Of a DNA stretch of 64,000 nucleotides, positions 1 through 15,387 are shown one piece after another. The notes under the pieces are model-generated. The model was not told the DNA's origin. It saw only the letters and a program-made list of their open reading frames with translations, and ran no database searches. The stretch lies in the NCBI GenBank assembly GCA_964387275.1, contig CAYLVW010000001.1:355508-419507 (forward strand), read 5' to 3'. How positions within the stretch are numbered: position 1 is the stretch's first letter; each line of letters begins with the position of its first letter. The DNA is from an uncultured Candidatus Saccharibacteria bacterium. GTDB lineage: Bacteria > Patescibacteriota > WWE3 > UBA101185 > UBA10185. The translations under genes were made by a program, and so were the position numbers.

Positions 1-901
1 GCATATCGTCCCAATTCTTTCTTTTTTAATTGCTCGACTTGTTGCATATACACTTGTGGGATTTGTACTTGGTGCTTTGGGATCAGTAGTTCAACTTTCA
101 TTATCAATGCGAATAATATTACAACTTGCAGTTGGTGTATTTATGCTAGGCACTGCCTTTAATCTTCTATACTTGCACCCGTTTTTTAGATATTTTGTTA
201 TCCAGCCCCCAAAATCCTTTGCAAAAATAGTGAAGGATCAGTCAAAAAGTAAAAAAATATTTGCCCCTGCTTTGTTAGGCGCAATGACTGTGCTTATACC
301 TTGTGGAGCTACTCAAGCAATGATGGCATATGCTATTTCGACTGGTTCACTAATTTCGGGTGGTGTAACAATGTTTGTGTTTATACTAGGAACCTCTCCC
401 TTATTTTTTATTCTTGGGTATGTACTTAAAAAAGCTAGGGAATCCGCTTTTTTTGGTTTTAACAAAATTGCATCTGCGGCAATTATTTTAGTTGCAATTT
501 ACAACATAAGCGGTGCTGTAGCTTTAACTGGTACAAAATGGACTTTTGAAAATATTGCTAAATCTATAAATTGTTCAATCAGCTTTTGTGATAACTCAGC
601 GTCATCAAATTTAGTAACAACAAAAACGGTTAATGAAGCGACTATTTATATAGAACAATCTGGGTACAGTTCAAGCCCCAGTGTCATTTATATAAAGGCG
701 GGATCTAGTGTTAAATTAAATTTAGTAAATAGAAGTGGTGCAGGATGTATTCAAGCATTCACAATTCCCAAACTAAATATTCAGCAAGTAATACCTATTG
801 GAAGTTCGACTACTTTAGAATTTGTTGCTCCAAATGAACGAGGACCTTTAGCATTTATGTGTAGTATGGGTATGTATAGAGGAGTGATAAACGTAATTTA
901 A
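1..901 (+). CDS. Multi-pass membrane protein (TauE/SafE- or DsbD-like core with PCGATQAMMAYA motif) fused to a C-terminal cupredoxin-like domain (FMCSMGMYRG); 5' end truncated by window edge
   Basis: Reading frame is open from nt 2 to stop at 901. Hydrophobic helices dominate the N-terminal part. The C-terminal ~90 aa is beta-rich with Cys/Met residues resembling a cupredoxin-like metal site. First gene of a metal-related operon. Confidence 0.45.
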   Translation, partial: HIVPILSFLIARLVAYTLVGFVLGALGSVVQLSLSMRIILQLAVGVFMLGTAFNLLYLHPFFRYFVIQPPKSFAKIVKDQSKSKKIFAPALLGAMTVLIPCGATQAMMAYAISTGSLISGGVTMFVFILGTSPLFFILGYVLKKARESAFFGFNKIASAAIILVAIYNISGAVALTGTKWTFENIAKSINCSISFCDNSASSNLVTTKTVNEATIYIEQSGYSSSPSVIYIKAGSSVKLNLVNRSGAGCIQAFTIPKLNIQQVIPIGSSTTLEFVAPNERGPLAFMCSMGMYRGVINVI

Positions 902-906
902 CGATT

Positions 907-1119
907 ATGCAAACTGTAACATTAAAAATCATAGGAATGCATTGTACAAGTTGTGCAATAAATATTGATCTGGAACTTGAAGAACTAAATGGTGTTGGCG
1001 AATCAGTTACTAGTTATGCCAAGATGGTGACAAAAGTTTCTTATGACTCAAATATAGTTAAATTGGAAAAAATTGTAGAAGTACTTAATTTATTAAAATA
1101 TGAGGTTAAATTGTTATGA
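907..1119 (+). CDS. copZ: Heavy-metal-associated (HMA) copper chaperone, CopZ-like
   Basis: 70 aa with the canonical GMHCTSC (GMxCxxC) metal-binding motif near the N-terminus. Its 3' end overlaps the next gene by 4 nt (ATGA). Confidence 0.8.
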   Translation: MQTVTLKIIGMHCTSCAINIDLELEELNGVGESVTSYAKMVTKVSYDSNIVKLEKIVEVLNLLKYEVKLL

Positions 1120-2066
1120 ATACCGATAAGAAATTTATATTAGGAATTGCCGCTTTTACAGCATTAGTTTTTGTTGGAATTATTTTTCTAGCCAACAAAA
1201 CGACTACAACACAGAATGGAGAAACCGTTCTTCCTGAAGATAAAAAGGAGCTTTTGAAAATTGCATCTGACGATTGGATAAAAGGAAATAAGGAAGCTAA
1301 AGTTGTAATAGTTGAATATTTAGATTTTGAATGCGAAGCGTGCGGAGCATATTATCCATTAGTTAAACAGCTATCAGAAGAATATAAAGACGATTTAGCA
1401 ATTGTGACTAGATATTTTCCATTACCCGGGCATAAAAATAGTATGACTTCTGCCACCGCTGTCGAGGCTGCAGGCAAACAGGGTAAATATTGGGAAATGT
1501 TCAATATTTTGTTCGACCATCAAAAGATTTGGGGTGAAAAACAAAGTCCAGATCCTGCTATATTCGAAGGATATGCTCAACAAATTGGTTTAAACATGGA
1601 TCAGTTTAAAAAAGACGTTGTATCCCAGGAAGTTAAAGATAGGGTTAATCGGGATAAAAGTTCTGGTATAAAGCTTGGAGTATCAGGAACACCTTCATTC
1701 TATCTAAATGGAAATAAAATCCCAAATCCCAAAGGACCTGATGACTTTAAATCCTTCATACAAGCCGAGATTTCTAAAACAACTAGTACTAAAACAACTA
1801 GTACTAAAACGGAGGTACAGCTTTATAGTAAAGATGATATTGCCCAGCATAACTTAGAAACAGACTGTTGGATGGCTATAGAGGGTAAAGTATATAATGT
1901 TACAGACTTTGTCGGTAAACACCCAGGTGGTAAGGCAATAATTAATGGTTGTGGTATAGATGCAACAGCATTGTTTAATGAACGCCCTACTAATAATAAA
2001 GGACCCCACCCTGACCAAGCGAAAGAGCTTCTTAAGGAATTTTATATTGGCGATCTTAAGTTGTAA
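1116..2066 (+). CDS. Fusion protein: N-terminal TM anchor + DsbA-like thioredoxin domain (CEAC active site) + Thr/Ser-Lys repeat linker + C-terminal cytochrome b5-like heme-binding domain
   Basis: The thioredoxin-fold region carries YLDFECEACGAY. The TTSTKTTSTKT linker comes from a direct DNA repeat at 1787-1812. The C-terminal LYSKDDIAQHNLETDCWMAIEGKVYNVTDFVGKHPGG matches the cyt b5 heme-binding signature (HPGG). Confidence 0.6.
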   Translation: MNTDKKFILGIAAFTALVFVGIIFLANKTTTTQNGETVLPEDKKELLKIASDDWIKGNKEAKVVIVEYLDFECEACGAYYPLVKQLSEEYKDDLAIVTRYFPLPGHKNSMTSATAVEAAGKQGKYWEMFNILFDHQKIWGEKQSPDPAIFEGYAQQIGLNMDQFKKDVVSQEVKDRVNRDKSSGIKLGVSGTPSFYLNGNKIPNPKGPDDFKSFIQAEISKTTSTKTTSTKTEVQLYSKDDIAQHNLETDCWMAIEGKVYNVTDFVGKHPGGKAIINGCGIDATALFNERPTNNKGPHPDQAKELLKEFYIGDLKL

Positions 2067-2085
2067 TAATTTTATAAGGATATGT

Positions 2086-2730
2086 ATGAATGAAAAAATG
2101 ACAGGCGAACAAACAAATTTAGAGCCTTCCAAATCAAGACGATTTGTATCTATTAAAAATAGAAAGATATTAGTAGCACTAATGCTATTAGGTGCTTTTA
2201 TAGGATTCGCTTTTTATTATAAGGGTGTCTTTGTTGCGGCCACGGTAAATGGAAGTCCTGTAACTAGGCTAAGTGTAATAATGGAACTAGAAAAGCAAGG
2301 AGGGAAAAATACACTAGATGCCCTTATTACCGAGAAGCTAATTGATAATGAGGCTAGAAAGAAAGAAGTTGTTGTAACCAACGATGAGATTGATCAAGAA
2401 ATTAAAAAAATAGAAGCATCAATTACACAACAGGGCGGTACACTTAATGACGCGTTACTACAACAAGGTATGACTTTGGATTCATTGAAGAAACAATTGT
2501 CTGTTCAGAAAAAAATTGAGAAAGTTTTGTCCGATAAGATACAAGTAATTGACGACGATATTTCAAAATATATTTCAGACAATAAAATTGAATTAGAATC
2601 AGGTAAAGAAACTGAAACAAAAAACCAAATAGCCCAACAGCTAAAAGGACAAAAGCTAAATCAGGAAGCATCTTCGTGGATAAATTCACTCAAAGCTGGC
2701 GCCAAAATCAACTACTATGTAAATTATTGA
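2086..2730 (+). CDS. Membrane-anchored SurA-N-like periplasmic chaperone domain protein
   Basis: Start chosen at the MNEKMTGEQ ATG at 2086, which has an AAGGA RBS. The longer ORF from 1960 overlaps the upstream gene. One TM helix followed by a SurA N-terminal-like helical region (LIDNEARKKEVVVTNDEIDQEIKKIEA). Confidence 0.45.
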   Translation: MNEKMTGEQTNLEPSKSRRFVSIKNRKILVALMLLGAFIGFAFYYKGVFVAATVNGSPVTRLSVIMELEKQGGKNTLDALITEKLIDNEARKKEVVVTNDEIDQEIKKIEASITQQGGTLNDALLQQGMTLDSLKKQLSVQKKIEKVLSDKIQVIDDDISKYISDNKIELESGKETETKNQIAQQLKGQKLNQEASSWINSLKAGAKINYYVNY

Positions 2731-2765
2731 TCGTATATGCATAAGGCATGAAGTAAAATAGAAAT

Positions 2766-4667
2766 ATGCTTGTTTATGAATTACTAAAAAATACGAAATT
2801 TAAAAGGTTGGCTTTAACATTGCTTCTGGTTATTCCGTTTGAAGTATTGTCTCTTTTTTCGATTCATTTACCCCAGTTTATTGAGATAGCAGTTTTCAGT
2901 ATTATAATGCTTATCTTTGGTAAAAATGTAATTATTAACGGTCTAAGAAGCCTCATGCACCTAAATTTTTCTAATATAAATCTGCTAATGACAATTGCAG
3001 TATTTGGAGCTCTATATTTAGGGGAGTTAGAAGAGGCTGTTATTATTATTGTTCTTTTTGCCATAAGTGAGACATTAGAAGAGTTTGGTATTCGCAAAAG
3101 TCAAAACTCACTTGAGGAACTTGTTAAAAAAACTCCGAAAACGGCACTCATAAAAGGTCATGATGATAAAACACCTATTGAAAATATATCTGTCGGGGAG
3201 ATCCTTGTAGTAAAGCCAGGCGATTATATTCCTCTGGATTGTGTAGTTGTAGAAGGGAACTCATTAGTTGATGAGAGTACAATAACAGGCGAACCTTTAC
3301 CCAAAAGCAAATTTCCAGGTGAATTGGTATATGCAGGAACACTTAATACCCAGGGATATTTAGAAATCAGAGTTATCAAGGTTTCAAAAGATACTACTTT
3401 AGCTAAGATTGTGGAATTAACATTCCAATCTATAGAAAAAAAGTCACGTGCCACTAAATTTATTGAGAATTTTGCACTTTACTACACACCTACAATAATT
3501 GTCATTGCAACTTTACTAACAATAGTTCCTTTTTTTGTTTTCGGACAACCTTTTACTGTCTGGTTTACGCAAAGTCTTACAGTTCTGCTAATTGCGTGTC
3601 CTTGTGCTTTAGTCATTTCAACACCAATAACAATATTCTCTGCAATTGGGAATGCTACTAAAAGAGGCGCTTTAGTAAAAGGTGGTCAATTTTTAGAGGA
3701 AATGGGGAAAATAAGAGCCATAGCTTTTGATAAAACGAGAACCTTAACTAAAGGAGAGCCTCTCGTATCTGATATTGTTACTTTCGATGGGGTTTCAAAA
3801 GAAGAGCTGCTTAATTGTGTTGCCGGTGCTGAATCTCTTTCTGAACACCCTATTGCGAAAAGTATTGTTGAAAGAGCAAATACCGTAGATGGAGAAAATC
3901 ACTCATACTCAAACTTTAAATCCGTTATGGGTAAAGGTATTAGTGGGGAATGTTTAGTTTGCGTTGATAAACACCACTGCATAGGTACTTTGGAATACAT
4001 TATGGAAGAACATAAAGTTGACACCAAAGTAATAGAAATAGTTGAGAAATTTGAAAAAGAAGGTAAGACAGCGATTGTAATTAGTTCTAATAAGCACATT
4101 GAGGGAGTTATTGGTGTTACTGATACGATTAGAAGTGAAAGTAAACAAATTGTAATGGACTTAAATAAACTCGGAGTAACTTCCATCATGCTTACTGGAG
4201 ATAATGCGTCGGCAGCTGCGTATGTGTCAAAAGAAGTTGGTATTAGTGAGTTTTATGCCAAGCTTCTACCTGATGAGAAAGTTTCAAATTTATTAGAATT
4301 GGTCAGAAAATATAAAAATGTTGCGATGGTTGGAGATGGCGTGAATGATGCTCCTGCCCTTGCAACTGCTTCAGTCGGTATTGCAATGGGTGCTGTTGGA
4401 TCGGATGTAGCTATTGAAAACGCAGATATAGCATTGATGAACAATAATTTAAGCCTACTACCATTTTTGATTAGTCTTGGTAGAAAAGCTATAAGGACTA
4501 TTAAGTTAAACACTACTTTGGCAATTGGAGTAAAACTGTTTTTCCTATTTTTTGCGCTGATTGGAAAAGGTAATCTTGCCTTAGCCATATTTGCTGACGT
4601 TGGTGTTACTTTACTAGTAGTGGCAAATAGTTTGAAATTATTTAATTATGATATGGAAACAAAATAG
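2766..4667 (+). CDS. P1B-type heavy-metal translocating P-type ATPase (Cu+/Zn2+/Cd2+ type, CPC motif), without N-terminal HMA domain
   Basis: CPC in CPCALVIS of TM6, DKTRTLT phosphorylation motif, TGDN, and GDGVNDAPAL hinge. 633 aa. Confidence 0.85.
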   Translation: MLVYELLKNTKFKRLALTLLLVIPFEVLSLFSIHLPQFIEIAVFSIIMLIFGKNVIINGLRSLMHLNFSNINLLMTIAVFGALYLGELEEAVIIIVLFAISETLEEFGIRKSQNSLEELVKKTPKTALIKGHDDKTPIENISVGEILVVKPGDYIPLDCVVVEGNSLVDESTITGEPLPKSKFPGELVYAGTLNTQGYLEIRVIKVSKDTTLAKIVELTFQSIEKKSRATKFIENFALYYTPTIIVIATLLTIVPFFVFGQPFTVWFTQSLTVLLIACPCALVISTPITIFSAIGNATKRGALVKGGQFLEEMGKIRAIAFDKTRTLTKGEPLVSDIVTFDGVSKEELLNCVAGAESLSEHPIAKSIVERANTVDGENHSYSNFKSVMGKGISGECLVCVDKHHCIGTLEYIMEEHKVDTKVIEIVEKFEKEGKTAIVISSNKHIEGVIGVTDTIRSESKQIVMDLNKLGVTSIMLTGDNASAAAYVSKEVGISEFYAKLLPDEKVSNLLELVRKYKNVAMVGDGVNDAPALATASVGIAMGAVGSDVAIENADIALMNNNLSLLPFLISLGRKAIRTIKLNTTLAIGVKLFFLFFALIGKGNLALAIFADVGVTLLVVANSLKLFNYDMETK

Positions 4668-5882
4668 ATGTTAGATATAAATAAGGTACGTCAAGACTTT
4701 CCATTGTTGGCAGAGAACGGCAAAGGCAAAAATCTTATATATTTTGATAATGCGTGCCAGAGTTTACGCCCCAATCAAGTTATTGATAAAGTTGCAGAGT
4801 ATTATCGTGAATACCCCGCCTGCGGTGGGCGCAGTATGCATCGATTAGCCACGAAAGTAACTAACCAGTGTGATGAAGCCCGAGAGGTTATTGCAAACCT
4901 TATCAAAGCTAAAAAGAAAGAGGAAATTATATTTACTCGCAATACGACCGAAGGAATAAATTTAGTAGCTAACAGTATTGGTTTACAAAATGGCGATGTG
5001 GTTATAACAACTGATAGAGAGCATAATTCCAACTTAATTCCATGGCAGGTTCTTAAGAAGAAAATTGGTATTGTCCATAAAATTATCGCCACTAACTCAG
5101 ATGGGCTTTTAGACATGGAAACTTATCAAAAGGTACTTAACGAGGGGGCCAAGCTTGTTTCAATGGGATATACATCTAATTTAGATGGTGTCAGCATCAA
5201 TGCAGAGAGTGTAATAAATATAGCACATAAGTATGGAGCAAAAGTGTTATTGGATGGTGCTCAAGCTATTCCGCATAAAAATGTAAATGTATCTAAATTG
5301 GATGCGGATTTCCTAGTATTTTCAGGACACAAAATGCTGGGTCCTTCGGGTATTGGTGTGCTATATGGTAAACAACAGTTATTAGATAACTTGGAGCCGT
5401 TTTTGGTTGGTGGGGACACGGTTGAATCGTCAACATATGATTCTCATATTTTTTTACCATCTCCCGAAAAGTTTGAGGCGGGACTACAGGACTACGCAGG
5501 AATTATTGGTTTGGGAGAGGCAGTGAGGTACTTAAACAATATAAGCGTTGATGCAATTCAAAAACAAGAACTGGAATTAAACACATTTATAACCTCTGAG
5601 ATTACGAAAAACCCTAGATTGAAAATACTCGGACCTAAAGACCCCGCCTATCGTAGCGGTATTATTTCCTTTACTGTTGAAGGAGCCGATGTACATCAAG
5701 TAGCACTTATGTTGGATAGTTCGGCTGGTATTATGATACGTTCTGGGCAACATTGCGTTCATTCATGGTTTAATGCCCGAAACATAAAAGGCTCTGTTAG
5801 AGCATCTTTGTATTTTTACAATACACTTAAGGAAGCCGAGCAATTTGTTATAAGTTTAGATAAGGTATTGAGGGTGATTTAA
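4668..5882 (+). CDS. sufS: Cysteine desulfurase, class V aminotransferase (SufS/CsdA group II)
   Basis: PLP-lysine region SGHKMLGPSGIGVLYG and the group II active-site loop RSGQHCVHSW. The ATG immediately follows the ATPase stop, indicating translational coupling. Confidence 0.75.
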   Translation: MLDINKVRQDFPLLAENGKGKNLIYFDNACQSLRPNQVIDKVAEYYREYPACGGRSMHRLATKVTNQCDEAREVIANLIKAKKKEEIIFTRNTTEGINLVANSIGLQNGDVVITTDREHNSNLIPWQVLKKKIGIVHKIIATNSDGLLDMETYQKVLNEGAKLVSMGYTSNLDGVSINAESVINIAHKYGAKVLLDGAQAIPHKNVNVSKLDADFLVFSGHKMLGPSGIGVLYGKQQLLDNLEPFLVGGDTVESSTYDSHIFLPSPEKFEAGLQDYAGIIGLGEAVRYLNNISVDAIQKQELELNTFITSEITKNPRLKILGPKDPAYRSGIISFTVEGADVHQVALMLDSSAGIMIRSGQHCVHSWFNARNIKGSVRASLYFYNTLKEAEQFVISLDKVLRVI

Positions 5883-5884
5883 AT

Positions 5885-6817
5885 ATGATTTGTATTGTAG
5901 CTTTTGTCGTTTTATCTATATTAGGAATATTTAGTGCCACCCACCGATTGTTAGCAAAGGAGGCTTTGGATTGTGTATTACGTAGGATAACACTGAGACC
6001 TTGTACGACAGGCTTTAACGAGAGAATTAAAGCACAGATTTTAGGAAAGGTTCTTGGAAAATCGGAAGTAGCTGCAAAATTTCTTAATAAACATTTTGAG
6101 ATATTTTCATGGGTTCTATTTCTCACAATGATAGGTAGCCTTTTCTGGACTACAAAGGGACTACTTAACTTCTACATGTATGGCAGTTGCAACGGATTAA
6201 ATAAATCAGGGTTTTGTGCCCTAGACCCTAAAGGAGAAAACAACAAAGTTTCTCAGGCAGGTGGTAGCTGTGCTACAGGAGAAGGTGACGAAAGCAACGT
6301 GACACTCGTTGATGTAAATTTATCTATATTTCCCACTATAACTAGTGATTCTAGCGATACCGTTGTATTTATAGGCTGCTATAGTTGTGATTACACTAGA
6401 AAAGCCTACCCGCTTATAAAGAAATTAATAAGTGAAAATAATGTTAACTATATATTTGCTCACTATCCTGTTAAAGAGGAAACACTGTATCTTCTTCCGA
6501 TAGGTTATTGTGCATACAAGCAGGATAAAGATAAATTTTGGGAGTTAAATGACAGGCTGTTTTCCAGCGAAAAAAGTGATATTTCTCAAAGGGAGTTTGT
6601 GGACTCATTACTCAAAGATGTTGGTTACGACTTGACTGCAATAAACACATGTAGCACTTCAGAAGAAACAAATTTGGAGGTTGTAGCTAGACGAATTACA
6701 CTTGAAAAAACTAATATTTACGGAACTCCTTTAGTTTTTATAAACGGCAAGGGATTAGTTGGCCCCAAACCCTATAGAGTATATGAACGTATACTTAAGG
6801 GGTGGAGGTTTTGGTGA
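5885..6817 (+). CDS. Membrane-anchored thioredoxin-fold (DsbA-like) protein with CYSC motif
   Basis: N-terminal TM helices. The C-terminal domain has VVFIGCYSCDYTRKAYP (CxxC) in a DsbA-like context. Ends with TGA. Confidence 0.4.
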   Translation: MICIVAFVVLSILGIFSATHRLLAKEALDCVLRRITLRPCTTGFNERIKAQILGKVLGKSEVAAKFLNKHFEIFSWVLFLTMIGSLFWTTKGLLNFYMYGSCNGLNKSGFCALDPKGENNKVSQAGGSCATGEGDESNVTLVDVNLSIFPTITSDSSDTVVFIGCYSCDYTRKAYPLIKKLISENNVNYIFAHYPVKEETLYLLPIGYCAYKQDKDKFWELNDRLFSSEKSDISQREFVDSLLKDVGYDLTAINTCSTSEETNLEVVARRITLEKTNIYGTPLVFINGKGLVGPKPYRVYERILKGWRFW

Positions 6818-6821
6818 CCAC

Positions 6822-7301
6822 ATGTTGAAAATAAAAGAAGAAGTGATAGTAGAAGTTCCATCACAGAATGTTTATTATTTTTTAACACATATAGACGAGT
6901 TGTACAAAATTTGGCATCCTAAACACCATGTTTTTTGTAAAACTATATATAAGAATCTTACTGAAACTGGATGTGTATTCCACTTTTTAGAAATAATCGG
7001 AGGAGTTCCCCTATATTTAGTGGTTAAAGTTTCACTGATAAAGAATAATCAGTATATTGAGTATAAACCTATATTTCCTGTATCCATTTTTAACTTAGGA
7101 GCTGGATATTTCGATATAGAAGCTATTTCTGAAAATAAAACAAAACTTACTGCCGTTGTTGAATTTGGAGATCGTTTTGGTTTACTGGAAAAGATTTGCC
7201 AAGTATTCTTAAAAACTCCAACTCTTAGGCAACACCTTAAAGAAGAGGGCGTTTATTTAAAAAGATATTTAGAGAATCCTATTGCACAAAACTGTTTATA
7301 A
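6822..7301 (+). CDS. Hypothetical protein, possible SRPBCC (START/Bet v1-like) fold
   Basis: Start reassigned to the MLKIKEEV ATG at 6822, which has a GGAGG-like RBS. The longer ORF from 6759 overlaps the upstream gene. The fold assignment is weak. Confidence 0.3.
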   Translation: MLKIKEEVIVEVPSQNVYYFLTHIDELYKIWHPKHHVFCKTIYKNLTETGCVFHFLEIIGGVPLYLVVKVSLIKNNQYIEYKPIFPVSIFNLGAGYFDIEAISENKTKLTAVVEFGDRFGLLEKICQVFLKTPTLRQHLKEEGVYLKRYLENPIAQNCL

Positions 7302-7341
7302 CTAGACTTGTACTATCATTTGCGTCATCAATGTATATAGT

Positions 7342-8622
7342 ATGGAACAAGAACTCAAATACTGCCTATATGCAAGAAAAAGCTCAGAATCAGACGAAAG
7401 GCAGGCAATGTCCATTGAGAGCCAGATCAAGGAAATGTCTGCAATTATCAAACGAGACAAGTTAAATGTAGTTGATATTAGGCAAGAAAGTCATTCCGCT
7501 AAGGTTTCTAGTGCTAGGCCCGTATTCAACCAATTAATCGATGATTTAAAGAAAGGTGAGTTTAACGCTATTTTAACTTGGGCACCAGATCGAATGTCAC
7601 GTAACGCAGGCGATTTAGGCTCTTTAGTCGACTTAATGGATAGTGGCAAACTTGCACAAATTAAAACGTATTCACAGGTTTTTACGAACAATCCAAACGA
7701 AAAGTTTTTATTAATGATACTTTGTTCACAGGCAAAACTGGAAAATGATAACAGAGGTTTAAACGTGAAACGTGGTATCAGAAACAAATGTGAATTGGGT
7801 TGGAGACCCTGCATGCCCCCGCTTGGATATCACAGTAGAGCTATAGATGGGGTAAAAGACATAGTTATTGATCCGATTCGTGGACCTTTAATAAAAGAGC
7901 TCTTTGAGCTAATAGCTTTAGTTGGTATGAGCGGAAGATCCGCAAGAAAGATGCTTTACAAAGAGAAAAACTTTAAGACCAGAAACGCTAAAGATATAAC
8001 TTTGAGTATGGTTTATAAAATTCTTCGCAACCCCTTTTATTATGGCCAATTTGAGTATCCAGTAGGAAGCGGTACTTGGTATAAAGGAAAACACGAACCA
8101 TTAATAACTAAAGAGATATTTGATAAGGTACAAGATCGTTTAGAAATCCCAGAAAAAGCGAAATGGAGATCGAAAAACTTTGCATTTACAAGAATGATTC
8201 ATTGTGGTGAATGTGGAACCATAATTGTCGCTGAGGAAAAATTTAGGAATCTTCTCGATGGAACGAAACGAAAGCATGTTTACTATCATTGTGGTAGACC
8301 AAAAGACGACAGGGAATGTCACCAACCATATCTATCCGAAGACGAATTAGTAAGTCAGCTTATCGAGATCGTGGATACTGTAAAACTTGATTCAAAGGAA
8401 ATGGGAAAGAAGATTAAGCAAGAGTTCGATAGGTATCAGACTTTCGGGAATTTAATCCTAGATGATCACTCTGAAAAAATGCCAGAGTTTAATCACACGA
8501 TTGATATTTCAACCTTTGCTAAACACATCCTAAAAGTAGGGTCTAGTGACGAAAAACGAGAAATCCTTAACCTGATGAAAACCAAGTTTCTATTGAAAGA
8601 TCGTCGAATTACACTTAGCTGA
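7342..8622 (+). CDS. Large serine recombinase (resolvase/invertase-type catalytic domain + recombinase domain + zinc ribbon)
   Basis: The N-terminal YARKSSESDERQAMSIESQ matches the serine-recombinase catalytic motif. A central recombinase domain is present, and CGECGT...HCGRP gives a zinc ribbon. Typical of phage or integrative-element integrases. Confidence 0.75.
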   Translation: MEQELKYCLYARKSSESDERQAMSIESQIKEMSAIIKRDKLNVVDIRQESHSAKVSSARPVFNQLIDDLKKGEFNAILTWAPDRMSRNAGDLGSLVDLMDSGKLAQIKTYSQVFTNNPNEKFLLMILCSQAKLENDNRGLNVKRGIRNKCELGWRPCMPPLGYHSRAIDGVKDIVIDPIRGPLIKELFELIALVGMSGRSARKMLYKEKNFKTRNAKDITLSMVYKILRNPFYYGQFEYPVGSGTWYKGKHEPLITKEIFDKVQDRLEIPEKAKWRSKNFAFTRMIHCGECGTIIVAEEKFRNLLDGTKRKHVYYHCGRPKDDRECHQPYLSEDELVSQLIEIVDTVKLDSKEMGKKIKQEFDRYQTFGNLILDDHSEKMPEFNHTIDISTFAKHILKVGSSDEKREILNLMKTKFLLKDRRITLS

Positions 8623-8668
8623 TTTCAACAATCTTGCAAATTAACAATATAGGCTTCATCATTAATTA

Positions 8669-9172
8669 ATGGGAAATTTATATGTAATTGTTGGTATCGT
8701 TCTTATCTTGGGAGTTGTACTTGGCTTATTATCTTCTAAATTTGGTGAAGATATTTCCGATAAAAAACGCCAATATAAGTATCAAAAGAAAGATTACCTA
8801 TTATCTCGTGCGGAACATCAGTTTTTTGATGTTTTAGTTGATGCATTAGGTGACCACTACTACGTCTTCCCTCAAATTCATTTAATTACTTTACTCGATC
8901 ACAAAATAAATGGACAGAATTGGAGAGGGGCTTTTAGGCATATTGACGAGAAGTCAGTAGATTTTGTGATTTGTGATAAAAGTTATATAAAACCATTAGT
9001 TGCAATAGAGCTGGATGATAAGTCTCATGGAACTGAGAATAGGATCGAAAGAGACGAAGAAGTAAAAAGGATTCTACAAGATGCAGGGGTACCCTTGTTA
9101 CGTTTCGAAAACCATGGAAGTTTTGATAAAGAAGAAATAAAAAATCGTATTATTAATGCTTTAGGAAAGTAA
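8669..9172 (+). CDS. DUF2726/NERD-like restriction-endonuclease-fold protein with N-terminal TM helix
   Basis: VDFVICD...IELDDKSHGTENRIERDEEV fits a D-(E/D)xK nuclease-like core, as seen in DUF2726 proteins. Confidence 0.35.
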   Translation: MGNLYVIVGIVLILGVVLGLLSSKFGEDISDKKRQYKYQKKDYLLSRAEHQFFDVLVDALGDHYYVFPQIHLITLLDHKINGQNWRGAFRHIDEKSVDFVICDKSYIKPLVAIELDDKSHGTENRIERDEEVKRILQDAGVPLLRFENHGSFDKEEIKNRIINALGK

Positions 9173-9376
9173 CTTCATAAAATTAGTAGCCATATAGCGA
9201 TAGAAAAGGCTGTGTAGAACACTGGTATTTGCCCTATACCCATACGGTCTAGAACCGGCACCCTCAATAAGACTATTTAATAAAAAAACGATGATAAATA
9301 AGGATAACCCATTACGGTCATCTGGAACATTGGGACTTGCCTATAACCACCTGAGTAGGGTGGAACAATGAGATTC

Positions 9377-9451
9377 TGGTGACCCTACGGAGAATCGAAC
9401 TCCGATTGCCAGGATGAAAACCTGGCGTCCTAACCATTAGACGATAGGGCC
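9377..9451 (-). tRNA. tRNA-Glu (anticodon UUC), CCA encoded
   Basis: The reverse complement folds as GGCCCTA / D-arm / CCAGG-TTTTCAT-CCTGG / GGAGTTCGATTCTCC / TAGGGTC-A-CCA, giving anticodon TTC. Confidence 0.85.
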
Positions 9452-9588
9452 ATATAAGCACAGATATATCTTATCAAAAACTAGGAATAGTATTTAGTGG
9501 AATCTGTACAAAATAACCTGTAGATTTTACCAATAAACCCCAAGAAATAGCAATATTCACCTAATTTTAGTAGAATGATCATGTTATT

Positions 9589-11070
9589 ATGAATCTAATC
9601 AATCAAGTAATACTGTTTTTTCAATCATTTGTTCTCGCATTAACACCGATGCCTACATATACTGAGGGAGTTTTGGGACAGCCGGTAAGTTTTTTTCCAT
9701 CTAAATCTTCTTTTCAAGCCGATAGAACAGTCTCTAAATTAATATATCGTGGACTTTTTAAATACGATATCTACGGGTCTCTTGTACCAGATCTTGCTGA
9801 TAACTGGTCCATATCCGAAGATGGTATGGGTTACACAATTAAGTTAAAAGACGACCAATACTGGTCAGATGGTTCTAAAATTACCTCAAATGACATCATC
9901 TATACCTCTTTTAAAGTAGGGGATCTTTCTGGAGTAGCTACAGATAGAATAGATGAGTTAACGGTACGGTTTACACTACCTAACAAGTTCTCTCCATTTT
10001 TAAGTATGCTTACAGTGGGGATTATGAAAGACGGTTCAGAAGAAACAAACAATGGGTTACTTCCAATCAGTAATGGTAATTTTAGGGTAATGAGAATTGA
10101 GAAAAATGGCCCTCTCACTAAGCAGGTAGTGCTAACCAAAGTTAATGTCCCAACTGATAAAAAGCTTAATTATTGCGAGGGAATTTTTGCAATACCAAAT
10201 GAAGGAGGCTGCAAAATTCGAAAAATTGTGATTAGGTATTTTGAGAACGAAGAAGAAATGAGTGTTGCAGCAAAACTAGGAGAAATTGATGGGTTTGTAG
10301 CATACAATGAACATGAAGAACTAGAAAACTTCTCAAACTATAAATTCCCACTTCAAGGTGTTTACTACGCAATTTTTTTTAATACCAGAAACGATAAATT
10401 AAAGGATACAGCAATTAGGCAAAAATTGGAGAAAGTATTACCTATCCAAGACATAATTAGTTCTAAAGGTATATCAGTACAAGGCCCAATAAGTAGAAGC
10501 ATATATACAGAAAGATCAATAGTAGAAAAAAAACCGGATCTCTCATTCAAAGAAGACTTGAGTTCAACTCAACTTATACTAACTATCCCAAATACAGAAG
10601 CAATGATGCAAATTGCAGAAGAAGTAAAAAGACACTGGAGAGAAAACTTAAACATAGATGTAACAATCAGAAAAATTGATCAAAAGAATTTCCTTAATGA
10701 AGTTGTAAAACCCAGAAATTTTGAAGTTATGATATATGGACAAGAAATAGGCAGAGACCCCGATAGATATGTAAACTGGTACTCGACACAAGAAGTATAT
10801 CCTGGACTTAATTTCACAGGGTTTAGTCAAGTCAGAGCAGATAGAGCATTGGAGGAGGGAAGAAACTTTACTGAATTTGAAGAACGTTTAGTACATTACA
10901 GAGAGTTTCAAAAAGTAATTGCGGATCAGGTCCCTGTAGTATTTTTATACCATCCATATACAAATTACTACATTTCTAAATATGTTAGAGGGCTTGGAGA
11001 CAAATATACATTTGATATAACTGATAGGTTTTTGGATTTTGAGAATTGGGAAAGAATTATTACTAACTAG
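9589..11070 (+). CDS. ABC transporter substrate-binding protein, family 5 (peptide/nickel type)
   Basis: SBP_bac_5-like signature LIYRGLFKYD...PDLADNWSISEDGMGYTIKLKDDQYWSDGSKITSNDI. No permease or ATPase genes lie adjacent. Confidence 0.65.
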   Translation: MNLINQVILFFQSFVLALTPMPTYTEGVLGQPVSFFPSKSSFQADRTVSKLIYRGLFKYDIYGSLVPDLADNWSISEDGMGYTIKLKDDQYWSDGSKITSNDIIYTSFKVGDLSGVATDRIDELTVRFTLPNKFSPFLSMLTVGIMKDGSEETNNGLLPISNGNFRVMRIEKNGPLTKQVVLTKVNVPTDKKLNYCEGIFAIPNEGGCKIRKIVIRYFENEEEMSVAAKLGEIDGFVAYNEHEELENFSNYKFPLQGVYYAIFFNTRNDKLKDTAIRQKLEKVLPIQDIISSKGISVQGPISRSIYTERSIVEKKPDLSFKEDLSSTQLILTIPNTEAMMQIAEEVKRHWRENLNIDVTIRKIDQKNFLNEVVKPRNFEVMIYGQEIGRDPDRYVNWYSTQEVYPGLNFTGFSQVRADRALEEGRNFTEFEERLVHYREFQKVIADQVPVVFLYHPYTNYYISKYVRGLGDKYTFDITDRFLDFENWERIITN

Positions 11071-11071
11071 C

Positions 11072-11881
11072 ATGCCACATATAATTGATGGAAAAGCACT
11101 TGCAAAAATTAAGCTCCAGGATATAAAAAATTATATTCAACAAAATAATTTAAAATTAACCCTAGCTGTAGTACTTATAGGTAGCGACCAAGCCTCTGCA
11201 ATATATGTAAGAAATAAACTAAGAAAAGCTGAAGAAGTTGGAATTTCTACTAAATTAATTTACAAGGAAACAGAATCACAAAAAGAGCTAAAACACTTGA
11301 TCTCTGAGCTAAATACAGATAAAACCATAACAGGTTTTTTTATACAAGCACCCTTACCAAAGCCTTTAAATTTTACGGATTTGGCATCATTAATTAAACC
11401 TGATAAAGATATTGACGGCTTAACCCCAACAAACTTAGGAAGATTAGCAAACAACATTATTAACACTCCTGTCTCTGCTACACCACTTGCAGTGTTAACA
11501 GCTTTAAAATCTATTCCTAATTTTGATTTTAGAGGAAAACATGTGGTTATTATAGGAAGATCAAACATCTTGGGTAAACCGCTAGCGTTGTTACTTACAA
11601 ACAATGACGCTACAGTAACTCTTTGCCATTCAAAAACTATAAATTTACAACAACTCACACTAACCGCCGATATTATAGTTTCTGCAACAGGAGTAAAAAA
11701 CTTGGTTACTGCAGATATGGTAAAAACTGGTGCAGTCCTAATAGATTGTGGCTCTCCTAACCAAGAAATTACAGATGAAGCCTACAAAAAGTCTTCTTAC
11801 TTTACACCTGTACCAGGGGGTATAGGTCCACTTACAATTGCTTGTCTTTTAGAAAACCTAGTAGGTCTAATCAAGCAATAG
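11072..11881 (+). CDS. folD: Bifunctional methylenetetrahydrofolate dehydrogenase/cyclohydrolase
   Basis: MPHIIDGKALAKI..., the YVRNK motif, GRSNILGKP Rossmann motif and PVPGGIGPLT near the C-terminus. Start moved to the ATG at 11072, just after the upstream stop. Confidence 0.85.
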   Translation: MPHIIDGKALAKIKLQDIKNYIQQNNLKLTLAVVLIGSDQASAIYVRNKLRKAEEVGISTKLIYKETESQKELKHLISELNTDKTITGFFIQAPLPKPLNFTDLASLIKPDKDIDGLTPTNLGRLANNIINTPVSATPLAVLTALKSIPNFDFRGKHVVIIGRSNILGKPLALLLTNNDATVTLCHSKTINLQQLTLTADIIVSATGVKNLVTADMVKTGAVLIDCGSPNQEITDEAYKKSSYFTPVPGGIGPLTIACLLENLVGLIKQ

Positions 11882-12017
11882 TAAACATAGTATCTCTATA
11901 TTCTTAAAATTACTTTTTCCATGAAAAGCTTCAAAGCTTATACTTAACTATTTAGTTTAATTAAATTGTAAAACAGGTGCACTAATGCTTTTTGATGTTA
12001 CTTAGTAACTGAGCAAT

Positions 12018-12046
12018 TTGTCACTATATAGAATGCTCTGTATAAT
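12018..12046 (+). promoter_or_regulatory. Sigma70-like promoter for tRNA-His (TTGTCA -17 bp- TATAAT)
   Basis: Near-consensus -35 and perfect -10 hexamers with a 17-bp spacer. The -10 ends 17 nt before the tRNA 5' end. Confidence 0.45.
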
Positions 12047-12063
12047 CTATGAGTTTACTGCAT

Positions 12064-12140
12064 GGTGGCTGTAGTTCAGTGGTTAGAACGCTGGCCTGTG
12101 GAGCCGGATGTCGTCGGTTCAAATCCGATCAGCCACCCCA
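12064..12140 (+). tRNA. tRNA-His (anticodon GUG) with encoded G-1 and CCA
   Basis: G-1 followed by GTGGCTG acceptor. Anticodon arm CTGGC-CTGTGGA-GCCGG, T-arm TCGGTTCAAATCCGA, then CAGCCAC-C-CCA. Confidence 0.85.
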
Positions 12141-12184
12141 AATATTTTCTTCGAATTTATCCTAATTTCTTATAATTATAAATA

Positions 12185-13129
12185 CTAAATTCTAAGTTCT
12201 GCTCGGAAGTATTTACGCCATATTTCAAAACCTAATTTTGAGTAAAAGTCTGTTTTGTCTGTCCATCCAATCCAACAATATTTAATGCCCTTGGACTTTA
12301 GTAGTTCAGTCCCATAAGATTTTAGAGCTAAACCAACCCCTTTACCTCTCCATTTTTCACTTACGCCTAAAGCTTTTCCGCTTCCTAATTTGTTTTCAAA
12401 TAATAGATTCCAGTTACAGTTTTCAATCTGTATACATGTGACACCAATAATCTCTTTATTGTGTATCGCCATAAAAACGTTGTTATAGTTGTTGTTATCA
12501 AAGTCTTGTTTGTAGTAGTCATGCCATTCCAAAAAGTTTTTCCGTTCGAAGTCTAGTATTTGTTCAGCATATTCAGGTGAAGAAATTTGTATTCTTATCC
12601 CCTCATTATTTATTTTTTCGTATATGCCTTTGGGTGACTTAAAAGTTTCAATATTCTGATACATATCATAGACCAGTTCGTTTTCAATCAAGAAGCCGTT
12701 TTTACTAAAAAAATTTATAGAATTAAGGTTCTCCGGTACCCCAGCCCATAGCCAGCTTCCTGCTCCGCCACCTAGTTTTATAGTCTTAACGCCAAGTTGA
12801 TCGAACCAGTCTTTTGTTGCGTTGATTAATGATGTACCTACTTTGTTATTTCTATATTCTGAGGTTACAACAACCAGCGTAATTACACCTCTATTTTCAT
12901 CACCAACTTGTTTGTTTTTTGCACTAATTACACCAACAATCTTGTTGTTTAGCTCGGCGACAAAGACACGTACTTTGTTATTAGTATCATCATACCCAAA
13001 CAATACGTTAAGCAATCGTTCTGGTGCGATTGGCCACAGTGTACCCAATTCTGAATTTGTGTAGATATCCAACAATGCCTGCTCGTCTTTTGGGTTATAA
13101 AGTCTTATGTTTAGTCTGGCTTGATTCAT
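12185..13129 (-). CDS. Tandem GNAT-family N-acetyltransferase (two acetyltransferase domains)
   Basis: Two acetyl-CoA binding segments, RNNKVGTSLINATKDWF and WRGKGVGLALKSY. Architecture resembles MshD-like double-GNAT enzymes. Confidence 0.6.
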   Translation of the reverse strand: MNQARLNIRLYNPKDEQALLDIYTNSELGTLWPIAPERLLNVLFGYDDTNNKVRVFVAELNNKIVGVISAKNKQVGDENRGVITLVVVTSEYRNNKVGTSLINATKDWFDQLGVKTIKLGGGAGSWLWAGVPENLNSINFFSKNGFLIENELVYDMYQNIETFKSPKGIYEKINNEGIRIQISSPEYAEQILDFERKNFLEWHDYYKQDFDNNNYNNVFMAIHNKEIIGVTCIQIENCNWNLLFENKLGSGKALGVSEKWRGKGVGLALKSYGTELLKSKGIKYCWIGWTDKTDFYSKLGFEIWRKYFRAELRI

Positions 13130-13364: not shown

Positions 13365-14168
13365 ATGCAAATACTTATTAAAATAATCAGAATACTGCAA
13401 AACACACCATTTAACCCAAATTGGCTTTGGATCACTAAATTCAATGAATTAAATAACAAAATTGTAAATCAGCATCTTTACGGAGATATTTTAGAGGTTG
13501 GTGCAGGTAGTGGACTTAGAAAAGCACAAATACTTTCTAATAATACCGGCAATATTACCTCGTATATTGCTACAGATTATGAGGGTTGGGATAACTTCTA
13601 TGAGAAAATTAAGAGTAATAAACTATATATGCTTTTTAACCCAGATCTGGGGTCTAGAAAGCTAGATGGGGTGTGCTCAGCAACAAACCTTCCATATGAA
13701 GACAAAAAATTTGATTGCCATATTAGCTTTGAGGTTTTGGAGCATATGGAAGACATCGATAAATATTTTTCAGAAGCCTACCGAGTTATAAAACCCGGAG
13801 GCATAATTTATTTTAGTACACCATTTATGTACCCATTACATGGAGATCCTCCAGAGTTTAAACACGATTATATGAGATTTGGTAATGGCTTGTATTACCT
13901 TATAGCGCAAAAATACGACTTAAGATTAATTGGAATTGAATCAAACACGGGTCTTGGTACTACTATGGCAGCCTTTGTATCACATTACCTATCAACCAAA
14001 ATACAAAATTCAAATAATATTCTGGTTAAAGTTCTTATATCTACTTTCCTAATACCTACTGCATTATTGTTAAATATGGCAGGATATATTATAGATCTGG
14101 ATCCCGACACTAAGTTTAGTTCACGATTTCATGTTATATACAAAAAAGAAAAACTTGAGCAAATTTAA
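13365..14168 (+). CDS. Class I SAM-dependent methyltransferase
   Basis: Motif I DILEVGAGSGL and motif post-II VIKPGGIIYFSTP. Confidence 0.6.
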   Translation: MQILIKIIRILQNTPFNPNWLWITKFNELNNKIVNQHLYGDILEVGAGSGLRKAQILSNNTGNITSYIATDYEGWDNFYEKIKSNKLYMLFNPDLGSRKLDGVCSATNLPYEDKKFDCHISFEVLEHMEDIDKYFSEAYRVIKPGGIIYFSTPFMYPLHGDPPEFKHDYMRFGNGLYYLIAQKYDLRLIGIESNTGLGTTMAAFVSHYLSTKIQNSNNILVKVLISTFLIPTALLLNMAGYIIDLDPDTKFSSRFHVIYKKEKLEQI

Positions 14169-14255: not shown

Positions 14256-14645
14256 ATGGAAGTGCTTCAGCAAAACGGCATTTATATCGCTTTGGTTATC
14301 ATTATTTCCTTTCTTTATGTTGTTTCTTCGATTGGTGTAGCACTTATCGGTATTATGTCTTCTGGGTTTGGTGGTATTAGTGCTATTGCTGACCCACAAT
14401 CAGACAGGTTTAAGATCGTTTATGGGGCTGTAAGCCTTATTGCGGGTACTCTTACAGCACTTTCACATTACCTTATGTGGGGTGTTTTTAGTATTCTCTT
14501 TATCCCCGCTGTTGTTTGCATTATGGGAGGGGTATACAATTGGATGTCAGTTGCCAGAGGCTACGCCGGTAAAACGGTTCTCTGGGCACTTATTATGAGT
14601 GCGCTTGGTATTATTCTTATGTACCTTAATTTTTGGGTGTTCTAG
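14256..14645 (+). CDS. Small integral membrane protein (4 predicted TM helices)
   Basis: Hydrophobic throughout. RBS GAGGAAAACAAATG precedes the start. Confidence 0.35.
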   Translation: MEVLQQNGIYIALVIIISFLYVVSSIGVALIGIMSSGFGGISAIADPQSDRFKIVYGAVSLIAGTLTALSHYLMWGVFSILFIPAVVCIMGGVYNWMSVARGYAGKTVLWALIMSALGIILMYLNFWVF

Positions 14646-14685
14646 GTATGTTGCAGCTGTTTGAATTTTCTACGTTAGGTAGAGT

Positions 14686-15387
14686 TCAGGCAGCTGCTTT
14701 TTTAATTTCTTTGTGCTCAATAGGCAAACTGACTTTCCAAACATAATAGTAACTATCAGGGACATGCTGACCAAGGCCATTTATCCTATCAAATATTAAA
14801 TGGTTTCCTAATTCAAACTCTTCTGTGATATTCCACACAATAGGCATTAAATCATAATAAATCCCTCCCCACTCAATTACAGAACCCAATGGTTTCCTAT
14901 GAGAGGCAAGTCCCGGTAGGGAGTCAGATTTCCACCAAAATTTTGCTAACGGTTTTGGAAGATTAAACACTAAAACCCCATTGTCACTAGAGATTTCAGG
15001 CTTACCAGTGCCCAAACCCAGCTCCCCTAGCAAAATATCAGCTTCTGCGCCGAGTCTAAATTTAAAGTTTGGGTCAGTAAGACCTGACTCTTCTAAGTAA
15101 GTAAGAGTTCTGTCGGGAATACCACCACCCCCTGGCATTACATAATTTCTCAAAGTCCCATATAATGCAGACTTGTAGTGTTTAGCTAGATAAATTCCGT
15201 AATCTTGAACTTCATTCCAGAGAATTTGCTGTTCGCGGGTTTCACAGTCTTCAAATTTTGGACCTTCCATATATGGACACTGATCTCCCGGTACAACATT
15301 TAACTCTATAGCTTGATCTTCTAAGTAATCATCAATGCCTGTGTTTATATCATCATCAGAGAAGGTTTCAGAGAAACGTAACACCAT
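14686..15387 (-). CDS. Hypothetical protein
   Basis: 233-aa ORF with no recognisable motifs. Acidic N-terminus. Confidence 0.3.
   Translation of the reverse strand: MVLRFSETFSDDDINTGIDDYLEDQAIELNVVPGDQCPYMEGPKFEDCETREQQILWNEVQDYGIYLAKHYKSALYGTLRNYVMPGGGGIPDRTLTYLEESGLTDPNFKFRLGAEADILLGELGLGTGKPEISSDNGVLVFNLPKPLAKFWWKSDSLPGLASHRKPLGSVIEWGGIYYDLMPIVWNITEEFELGNHLIFDRINGLGQHVPDSYYYVWKVSLPIEHKEIKKAAA

Follow-up and report, generated by a model that had tools for sequence, protein, structure and literature searches.

Positions 1–9451 of a 64,000-nucleotide stretch of contig CAYLVW010000001.1 (355,508–419,507 of the forward strand; the window in what follows) hold a block of metal-handling and thiol-redox genes, a large serine recombinase and a tRNA-Glu gene. 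We read the metal and thiol block as cargo of a mosaic serine-integrase island in a chromosome of the Candidate Phyla Radiation (CPR) type, with a probability of about 0.7. The island would take in window positions 1–9376 and at least 8.9 kb of DNA upstream, the window containing its tRNA-proximal part. Its right end would be a serine-integrase module made up of a 40 bp leader, the recombinase, a DUF2726 gene and a repeat-bearing terminus of 170 bp, joined to the CCA end of tRNA-Glu(ttc). The cargo would consist of two parts: an opposite-strand copper cassette (a two-component system, a protein combining an HMA domain, a DsbD_2 domain and two cupredoxin domains, a further HMA protein and a CopA-type pump with two HMA domains) and a BlaI/BlaR1-like operon encoding a DsbA, a DsbD_2–CupA-like protein, CopZ, a DsbA–cytochrome b5 fusion, a SurA-like protein, a ZntA-like pump, the cysteine desulfurase SufS and two proteins designated g7 and g8.

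Genes were called from the open reading frame (ORF) list, domains were assigned with Pfam and NCBIfam and tRNAs with ARAGORN and Rfam. Genes are numbered g1–g10 along the window, and loci with an L number are public contigs or loci fetched for comparison. One of them, L001, is identical to window 1–5471 and continues for a further 8,885 bp upstream, extending the metal region by at least 8.9 kb beyond the window edge. An earlier interpretation of the window (the sequence-only reading) had described a nine-gene block followed by a serine recombinase, a DUF2726 gene and a minus-strand tRNA-Glu, and had proposed a mobile island. The ORF list, Pfam, NCBIfam, ARAGORN and Rfam confirm all of these features and their coordinates; the island idea is largely supported and the interpretation as a whole partly so.

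Integrase module and its tRNA end

The recombinase g9 (7342–8622, plus strand; 426 residues) contains the Pfam domains Resolvase (PF00239, E = 2e-20), Recombinase (PF07508, 1.4e-14) and Zn_ribbon_recom (PF13408, 3.5e-7) and matches PHROG 95, 'integrase' (5.5e-64). Ser14, in the motif YARKSS, aligns with the RVS serine of a solved catalytic domain (PDB code 3g13). g9 is only distantly similar to CcrB, XisF and SprA (116 bits against a cut-off of 900 bits; SPbeta SprA, PDB code 9dxh, E = 8e-8). We assign g9 from its sequence as a large serine recombinase of the phage integrase type. It is followed by g10 (8669–9172, plus strand), a DUF2726 protein (9e-31) with an N-terminal transmembrane (TM) helix, which accompanies the recombinase in L084, L085–L089 and L177, with other genes in its place in L082, L090 and L178; g10 is a small accessory gene of the recombinase module. 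Beyond it lies a conserved spacer of ∼170 bp (9205–9376, no strand assigned), unique within the window and with internal repeats (ACCCAtACGGTC...GAAC and TTGCC.TATA.CC, each present twice), and then tRNA-Glu(ttc) (9377–9451, minus strand; ARAGORN, Rfam 62.9 bits), which is intact, has its CCA encoded and points its 3' end towards the island. At the other edge of the module, alignments and blastn break-points place the start of homology among the recombinase loci at CTAGACTT (window ∼7303, in the junction segment 7302–7341 of the plus strand), ∼40 bp 5' of the recombinase and right after the g8 stop codon.

Recombinases 88–97% identical to g9 sit in differing genomic settings. L084, L085 and L089 match the window unbroken from 7320 or 7342 to 9382, through the recombinase, the DUF2726 gene and the 170 bp spacer, and the homology ends at the 3' CCA of the tRNA, which in L085 and L089 is tRNA-Lys(ttt). 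In L090 a recombinase with 81% DNA identity and the spacer lie at tRNA-Glu(ctc), with different genes between them. The spacer is conserved alike beside tRNA-Glu(ttc), tRNA-Lys and tRNA-Glu(ctc), and the element end of the recombinase module is joined to several chromosomal sites in several genomes. The integrase relatives abut the 3' ends of several tRNAs, all left intact. The earlier placement of a serine-recombinase element beside tRNA-Glu therefore holds, since the series of recombinase, DUF2726 gene and spacer ends at the tRNA 3' end here and abuts other tRNAs elsewhere.

The spacer is the terminus of the element, abutting the tRNA CCA end, and probably serves as an attachment (att) arm bound by the recombinase or an accessory protein. 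It also contains a terminator-like hairpin (minus strand, 9322–9303). A structured RNA was considered and rejected: Rfam gave no match for the spacer, its search of window 1–13000 returning only two tRNAs, and RNAalifold gave a weak energy and no covariation. The spacer motif had no match in the viral collection. Upstream of the genes for ParB-like methylases (ParB-MTases) that accompany related integrases, no conserved left-end motif was found; the 12-mer CTTGCCTATWAC, tried as such a motif, recurs only in L085 and was not used.

Across all fetched loci, a tRNA 3' end faces 17 of the 28 informative serine recombinases within 3 kb downstream, as against 4.2% of random oriented positions. These tRNA-linked recombinases belong to several subfamilies (24–100% identity to g9), and the tRNAs are those for Glu, Lys, Gln, Ser, Arg, His and Gly; examples are found in L002 (16869–18456), L005 (17874–20261), L017 (10291–12754), L096, L101, L104, L130 and L178 (11000–14342). 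Tyrosine integrases typically insert at tRNA 3' ends, and serine integrases usually hit protein-coding genes, leaving repeats of 2–21 bp (PMC4701971). The linkage seen here is noteworthy because tRNA targeting is usually a tyrosine-integrase trait. Literature searches on serine-integrase elements of CPR bacteria gave nothing specific.

Right of tRNA-Glu the window is ordinary chromosome, encoding an SBP_bac_5 protein, FolD, tRNA-His, LeuRS, BipA and eight more tRNAs. The nearest protein relatives are found in Patescibacteria/CPR assemblies, for example from WWE3, Woesebacteria and Gottesmanbacteria, and on these the assignment to the CPR rests. On the far side of the backbone segment that it shares with the window, L082 has a second serine recombinase (14491–15657, minus strand), which seems to be broken into two ORFs and is directed at the tRNA-His 3' end (13969–14043); in the window, tRNA-His (12065–12140) is followed at this place by a GNAT gene.

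Metal and thiol genes as probable island cargo

Two relatives carry the block in the position of cargo. In L177, whose g7 is 88% identical to that of the window, a TerL-like gene and a DUF4352 gene are followed by the block from BlaI to g8, by DsrE, SHOCT and AAT genes, and by the recombinase (96.7% amino-acid identity), DUF2726, the spacer and the start of a tRNA. L178 and L180 are overlapping views of one 172 kb contig. Its left part holds restriction–modification (R-M) genes, a ParB-MTase (77% identical to that of L082), TerS, TerL and DUF4352, then the copper cassette (76–85% amino-acid identity to that of the source genome, in the same order) and four extra genes; its right part holds the block from BlaI to g7 (75% DNA identity), a different serine recombinase (51% amino-acid identity), DsrE with other small cargo, and tRNA-Gln. 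The block is cargo in both, because it lies between the Ter module and a serine recombinase–tRNA end. L082 and L083 share the tRNA-Glu–SBP–tRNA-His backbone of the window and its recombinase (88% amino-acid identity), and there the cargo is ParB-MTase, TerS and TerL with a type I R-M system. No empty tRNA-Glu site was found among the relatives.

Six more loci (L002, L005, L014, L015, L017 and L029) show a metal pump, then a serine recombinase and then a facing tRNA. The genes between pump and recombinase encode a Toprim primase in L015 and a CDF exporter in L017; in L005, ArsR and a second P1B pump occupy this interval. In L002 (12695–16255) a type IV coupling protein (TrwB/TraG-like, ∼870 residues) and a Replic_Relax (Pfam) protein are encoded between a ZntA-like pump and the recombinase–tRNA end, and sequence comparison identifies homologous ORFs in L014 (13453–16950) and L029 (13903–18280). 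These are genes of conjugative or mobilisable elements in CPR genomes.

Cargo and integration module are exchanged as separate units. Against L177, DNA identity is 76% over the block and rises at window ∼7300 to 89% in the recombinase module, so the two have separate histories. In clusters formed at 90% identity, the recombinase has 18 members and both the pump and the DsbA–b5 fusion are singletons. The sequence-only reading had suggested that the block may have been delivered by the recombinase element; its place as cargo in L177 and L178/L180 agrees with this, but delivery by this particular recombinase is too simple a description, because the histories of module and block differ.

This difference also bears on the alternative that survives best, although we consider it unlikely, in which only the 2.1 kb unit of recombinase, DUF2726 and spacer (∼7302–9376) is mobile and the metal block is a vertically inherited neighbour. 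The step from 89 to 76% identity against L177 favours such a unit, as does the start of homology to all recombinase relatives ∼40 bp 5' of the recombinase start; in L090 the recombinase comes directly after opposite-strand metabolic genes, in WWE3 genomes the block is syntenic with its flank, and the visible 18 kb contain no Ter module. However, the ParB-MTase, TerS and TerL genes that lie left of the recombinase in L082–L088 accompany it whether the site is tRNA-Glu or tRNA-Lys, which argues that elements of this family reach leftwards from the recombinase. The location of the block between Ter module and recombinase in L177 and L178/L180 argues against the smaller unit too, as does L178, where the same block meets another recombinase, at another tRNA.

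A number of observations weigh against an island that includes the block. The left end in the source genome would lie beyond the visible sequence, L001 stopping inside the CopA-type gene, and no ParB-MTase, TerS or TerL gene was found within the visible 18 kb left of the recombinase. In L182–L185 the copper cassette is surrounded by ordinary chromosomal genes, and because of these settings we make no firm prediction for the DNA to its left. In the WWE3 loci L008–L010 the block from BlaI to g7 seems to be in synteny with the flank downstream of it and to have diverged evenly with it; the block looks vertically inherited within WWE3 genomes and so is not mobile everywhere. Given the higher identity of the recombinase module, block and module need not have arrived together. 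Activity, excision and current mobility of the element are predictions. The proposed search for an att site or direct repeat of the tRNA-Glu region, run over the window and its 8.9 kb extension, returned nothing beyond chance matches of ≤12 nt, and the terminal motifs have no further copy in the window or L001. Nor does the block show a contrast in composition (tetranucleotide z ≤ 2.2; GC3 0.25 versus 0.28), the GC content being ∼35% and flat over the whole window. The lack of an att repeat is explained by the short repeats, of only 2–21 bp, that serine integrases leave (PMC4701971), and missing att repeats and a missing GC anomaly are uninformative for serine integrases or for transfer from one CPR genome to another.

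In L010 a tRNA-Glu(ctc) (1021–1094) lies 1.2 kb upstream of BlaI with its 3' end facing the block, so that the block neighbours a tRNA in this locus too, but on the opposite flank.

Small elements composed of a serine integrase, variable cargo and genes for a ParB-like methylase, TerS and TerL (the last often in two copies) form a widespread family in CPR metagenomes and in IMG/VR (L082 723–11281, L084, L085 4837–11848, L091–L111 and L180 14526–17811). No capsid or tail genes were found in the small-element loci examined. These elements look like phage satellites, sharing with satellites of the phage-inducible chromosomal island (PICI) type a size of 7–12 kb, site specificity, an integrase, TerS, TerL, a ParB-like methylase and variable accessory cargo. 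Carriers of this integrase have both TerS and TerL, the latter often in duplicate; a helper phage, a replication module and a packaging site are not known for them, and the Ter/ParB-MTase module is not seen in the window itself.

Metal, thiol and sulfur genes of the proposed cargo

The upstream part of the proposed cargo is visible in L001. Directly 5' of g1, on the plus strand, are genes for a BlaI-family repressor, a BlaR1-like M56 protease and a further DsbA; the opposite strand encodes a response regulator, a histidine kinase, the HMA–DsbD_2–double cupredoxin protein, an HMA protein and the CopA-type pump, which has two HMA domains and 1,165 residues in the source genome and within whose gene L001 ends. 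The regulator pair (L001 6519–7875, corresponding to window −2366 to −1010) may be a sensor of thiol or metal stress and not of β-lactams; the repressor lacks the Cys motif of CopY. The extracellular tail of the M56 protease is rich in cysteine. One BlaI/BlaR1-type operon thus unites three DsbA-like proteins, a DsbD_2–CupA-like protein, CopZ, a SurA-like chaperone, a Zn/Cd/Pb-type pump and the SufS–g7 pair, and the CopA-type copper cassette adjoins it. Overlapping stop and start codons had been described for several genes of the operon; a true overlap exists only between g2 and g3, and g5/g6, g6/g7 and g7/g8 merely abut, with gaps of 0, 2 and 4 nt.

The first gene in the window, g1 (1–901, plus strand, 5'-truncated by the window edge; 345 residues in full in L001), encodes a protein with DsbD_2 (5e-28) and Cupredoxin_1 (2e-10) domains. 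The best PDB match of its cupredoxin domain is CupA (2mry/4f2e; E = 0.0024 for the 2mry alignment), and its C...CSMGM residues are in register with the Cu(I) ligands C74 and C111-x-M113-x-M115 of CupA, so that the C-terminal domain is predicted to be a CupA-like, Cu(I)-binding cupredoxin. g2 (907–1119, plus strand) carries the motif GMHCTSC in an HMA domain (1.9e-11), and NCBIfam families of the CopZ/MerP type all score under their curated cut-offs; its sequence is that of a CopZ-like HMA metallochaperone. g3 (1116–2066, plus strand) is a membrane-anchored fusion of a DsbA-like domain (Thioredoxin_4, 1.4e-25; active site CEAC) to a cytochrome b5 domain (Cyt-b5, 8.8e-21) that keeps both putative heme-ligand histidines, His269 of HPGG and His298. 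This fusion is retained at 59–81% identity in ∼25 related loci, and we found no literature on it; its extracytoplasmic heme domain could provide a further route for the re-oxidation of DsbA. g4 (2086–2730, plus strand; a 214-residue gene call in L001) matches SurA_N_3 (3.6e-8) and resembles the N-terminal domain of the chaperone SurA.

The pump g5 (2766–4667, plus strand) is a P1B ATPase with a CPC motif and without an HMA domain. Its best PDB matches are ZntA (4umv, 3.9e-110) and CadA (7qbz, 3.7e-106); in addition to CPC278, the TM7 lysine of GVK590 and the TM8 aspartate of ADVG610–613 align with K693 and D714 of ZntA. It exceeds the cut-off of the NCBIfam IB2 model and falls short of that of the copper model IB1 (TIGR01511, 363.7 against 397), and the P1B-1 copper-pump motifs YN in TM7 and MxxSS in TM8 are absent. 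By sequence, g5 is assigned as a ZntA/CadA-like P1B-2 (Zn/Cd/Pb) ATPase, not a copper pump. Its phosphorylation motif is DKTRT (residues 322–326, window 3729–3743) in place of DKTGT, the Asp, the Lys and both Thr being retained. The variant is no lesion, because it is conserved across the orthologous CPR clade (46 DKTRT and 7 DKTKT among 53 sequences), with DKTGT in the more distant pumps of the same loci. DKT[RK]T is found in 28 of the 33 pumps that adjoin the SufS–g7 pair, and the searchable literature contains no mention of it in a P-type ATPase.

The earlier description of the block as a copper or soft-metal module accordingly needs qualification: the pump is ZntA/CadA-like and the module not simply one for copper, yet the CupA-like domain, CopZ and the upstream CopA-type pump with its two-component system do point to copper. 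We infer an envelope module for thiol protection and metal efflux, comparable to Scs and Bdb systems joined to those of the Cop and Znt type. The operon would keep extracytoplasmic cysteines properly oxidized and clear of thiophilic metals: the CupA-like and CopZ proteins would pass Cu(I) to the CopA-type pump, the HMA-less g5 would export ions of the Zn/Cd/Pb type, and the three DsbA-like proteins and the chaperone would make and repair disulfides, as in Scs and Bdb. The metal specificities and the direction of redox flow would be as drawn here. Far from the island, the backbone encodes a three-domain multicopper oxidase (window 47097–48683) and another P-type ATPase (25500–27446), and copper handling is therefore not confined to the island.

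A strictly conserved gene pair lies near the end of the operon. g6 (4668–5882, plus strand) matches Aminotran_5 (9e-119) and scores 449 bits with TIGR01979, slightly below the cut-off of 475; its pyridoxal phosphate lysine (SGHK) and catalytic cysteine (GQHC) align with those of a solved SufS (8d8s, 1.4e-93), as expected for a type II (SufS-like) cysteine desulfurase with an intact active site. g7 (5885–6817, plus strand) is a DsbA-like membrane protein with two predicted TM helices and the active site CYSC. Its family has more than 1,000 homologues of ∼310 residues, and family alignments show C3, C30, C40, C102, C111, C165-x-x-C168 and the cis-Pro loop G280-T281-P282 to be invariant. On the positive-inside rule, C30 and C40 would lie in a basic cytoplasmic loop and the remaining cysteines outside. 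The AF2 model (pLDDT 76.5 overall, >90 for residues 140–300, the thioredoxin domain) gives Foldseek matches to α-DsbA2, BdbD and ScsC (6eez, 3eu4 and 4gxz; E ∼ 1e-8 to 1e-7; target-normalised TM-score 0.73–0.81), and the outer domain is accordingly modelled as a DsbA/BdbD/ScsC-like oxidoreductase of thioredoxin fold. The N-terminal membrane module is predicted with moderate confidence, and the Cys-rich linker (100–133) is unresolved in the model. The module has no Pfam match, DsbB and VKOR included, and two predicted TM helices in place of the four-helix bundle with a quinone-coupled CxxC that marks those enzymes; it may still be a functional analogue of DsbB/VKOR.

The pairing of the two genes was counted in loci sampled independently through g7. 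SufS is found in the same locus in all 46 informative loci and directly adjacent in 40, an obligate and strictly conserved pairing for which, as for the trio of pump, SufS and g7, literature searches returned no description. The sequence-only reading had regarded the coupling of SufS to the pump as the unusual feature. Pump and SufS are indeed separated by 0 nt, and the order pump–SufS–g7 is repeated in many CPR genomes and conserved in the closest relatives, but the unusual coupling is that of SufS with g7, because the orthologous pump adjoins the pair in only 11 of the 21 loci with full flanks, on either side, whereas SufS and g7 are linked in 46 of 46.

A tentative and on balance improbable model is that SufS and g7 form a disulfide relay driven by sulfane sulfur, operating without quinones or oxygen and standing in for DsbB/VKOR. 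SufS would convert cysteine to an enzyme-bound persulfide, a form of zero-valent sulfur; this sulfur would leave as H2S after converting the Cys30/Cys40 pair on the cytoplasmic side of g7 into a disulfide; and the oxidizing equivalent would travel via C3, C102 and C111 to the outward CxxC and finally to secreted proteins. Sulfide set free in this way and the frequent ZntA-like neighbour with its DKT[RK]T motif would tie the relay to the way the cell deals with thiophilic metals. The path of the electrons is conjectural; the invariant pairing, the cysteines placed on both membrane faces and the lack of Fe–S scaffold genes in the examined neighbourhoods are the observations from which it starts. 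Such a relay would suit CPR bacteria, which are generally considered to have no quinones or respiratory chains. Literature searches on disulfide formation in CPR bacteria gave nothing specific. The chemistry has a precedent, because sulfane (zero-valent) sulfur oxidizes DsbA anaerobically and rescues an Escherichia coli dsbB mutant (PMC11921322).

Other roles for the desulfurase have been considered. Coupling of SufS to the pump, for Fe–S repair or sulfur-based metal handling under copper stress, would suit the 0 nt gap and the gene order of the closest relatives, and zinc has been reported to inhibit Fe–S cluster biogenesis in E. coli (PMC6495748), which would make co-expression sensible. The explanation is unlikely nonetheless. 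The pump is adjacent in about half of the full-flank loci and is of the Zn/Cd/Pb and not the copper type, and the invariant partner of SufS is a membrane thioredoxin-fold protein. No SufU, SufE, SufB, SufC or SufD gene was called beside SufS in L001, L177 or L178 (Pfam) or among the immediate neighbours in four pump-less loci; across these seven loci the proposal of Fe–S repair under copper stress thus finds no partner genes. Next to the pair in the pump-less loci lie genes for TruB, sortase, peptidoglycan-binding proteins, TerC and cupin. It is quite unlikely that the pair is instead a route for sulfur export or metal-sulfide formation, in which persulfide sulfur would pass outward via the g7 cysteines and capture Zn, Cd or Cu, complementing the pump. 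The conserved cysteines on both faces of the membrane, the thiophilic-metal pump that often adjoins the pair and the DsrE-family sulfur-carrier genes of the L177 and L178 islands would fit such a route; half of the pairs have no pump nearby, however, and the canonical DsbA/BdbD/ScsC-like outer domain, with its CxxC and cis-Pro, fits disulfide exchange better than sulfur carriage.

DsrE-family, DUF302, tRNA-Thr_ED and SHOCT genes lie beside the recombinase in L177 (11472–12062) and L178 (12357–14156), on opposite sides of it in the two loci. The DsrE-family genes are a second hint of sulfur trafficking in these islands. Considered as possible markers of an older island shared by L177 and L178, the DsrE and SHOCT genes are 57–65% identical in amino acids, against 84% DNA identity for the block, and are thus more diverged than the block.

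The last gene of the block, g8 (6822–7301, plus strand; 159 residues), has no Pfam, NCBIfam or PDB sequence match. Homologues with 55–61% identity are present in L003, L004, L008, L177 and others, and g8 is absent from L178. The earlier label 'SRPBCC-like' is unverified: the single-sequence model (pLDDT 41.8) is unreliable and too poor for fold searching, with its β-α-α-β6/7-α order alone compatible with the SRPBCC helix-grip fold.

Relation to known systems

The element resembles tRNA-linked islands, and elements of large serine integrases (phiC31, Bxb1, TP901-1, SPbeta SprA and staphylococcal CcrB), in carrying an integrase gene at its end and modular cargo; metal-resistance cargo directly downstream of an intact tRNA 3' end is a further likeness to tRNA-linked islands. 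g9 shares with the large serine integrases the arrangement of Resolvase, Recombinase and Zn-ribbon domains and the N-terminal catalytic serine, although at 426 residues it is short for the family. The lack of long flanking repeats is likewise as expected for such enzymes (PMC4701971). The serine integrases covered in PMC4701971 target protein-coding genes, whereas the clade described here is systematically tRNA-linked (17 of 28), and unlike them it places near-identical g9-type enzymes at three different tRNAs. Some sources call family members 'DNA invertase Pin-like', but it is very improbable that g9 is a housekeeping resolvase or invertase, the case that the sequence-only reading had named as contrary to its island, given the full large-serine-recombinase architecture, the match to PHROG 95 'integrase', the near-identical copies in unrelated contexts at different tRNAs, and the terminase and ParB-MTase genes alongside in ∼20 contigs of the viral collection.

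The copper genes recall the cop operon of Streptococcus pneumoniae (CopY–CupA–CopA) and CopZ/CopA systems in their CupA-like Cys...Cys-x-Met-x-Met site, HMA chaperone, CopA-type pump with two HMA domains and repressor of the Penicillinase_R family. They differ in that the cupredoxin is fused to a six-TM DsbD_2 domain and not to a single anchor, in that the repressor is without the C-terminal Cys motif of CopY and is paired with a BlaR1-like M56 protease, and in that the copper cassette has its own two-component regulator. The pump g5 shares the CPC motif and the equivalents of Lys693 and Asp714 with ZntA and CadA, but has no N-terminal metal-binding domain and, clade-wide, DKTRT or DKTKT and not DKTGT.

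With the Scs, BdbCD and DsbA–DsbB systems the operon has in common several DsbA-like proteins, a DsbD-family membrane protein and a chaperone in a metal-stress setting, and the modelled catalytic domain of g7 superposes on α-DsbA2, BdbD and ScsC. The layout of g7, a membrane module with an outward thioredoxin domain, recalls VKOR–thioredoxin fusions. No homologue of DsbB, BdbC or VKOR is encoded in the block, however, and the membrane module of g7 has two TM helices only, with Cys pairs on both faces and no Pfam family. In contrast to Scs and Bdb, g7 is obligatorily paired with a cytoplasmic cysteine desulfurase and one DsbA is fused to a b5-type heme domain. A type II desulfurase followed immediately by a Cys-bearing partner gene is also the arrangement of SufS–SufE and SufS–SufU, but here the partner is a membrane thioredoxin-fold protein, and no SufBCD was called nearby in the examined loci.

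Metal-resistance islands at tRNA genes are ordinary; the difference here is that the island is based on a serine integrase and is found in CPR bacteria, whose mobile elements are poorly charted. CPR islands exchange copper, zinc and thiol-redox cassettes, and the integration module is swapped independently of the cargo. The integrase family and its att-end sequences are now testable, and the integrases are possible genetic tools for organisms in which such tools are still lacking. The conserved DKT[RK]T of the pump is a second, small puzzle in a P-type ATPase motif that is otherwise near-invariant. The SufS–g7 gene pair may be of more interest than the island itself, as it raises a testable question: how DsbA is re-oxidized in bacteria without quinones.

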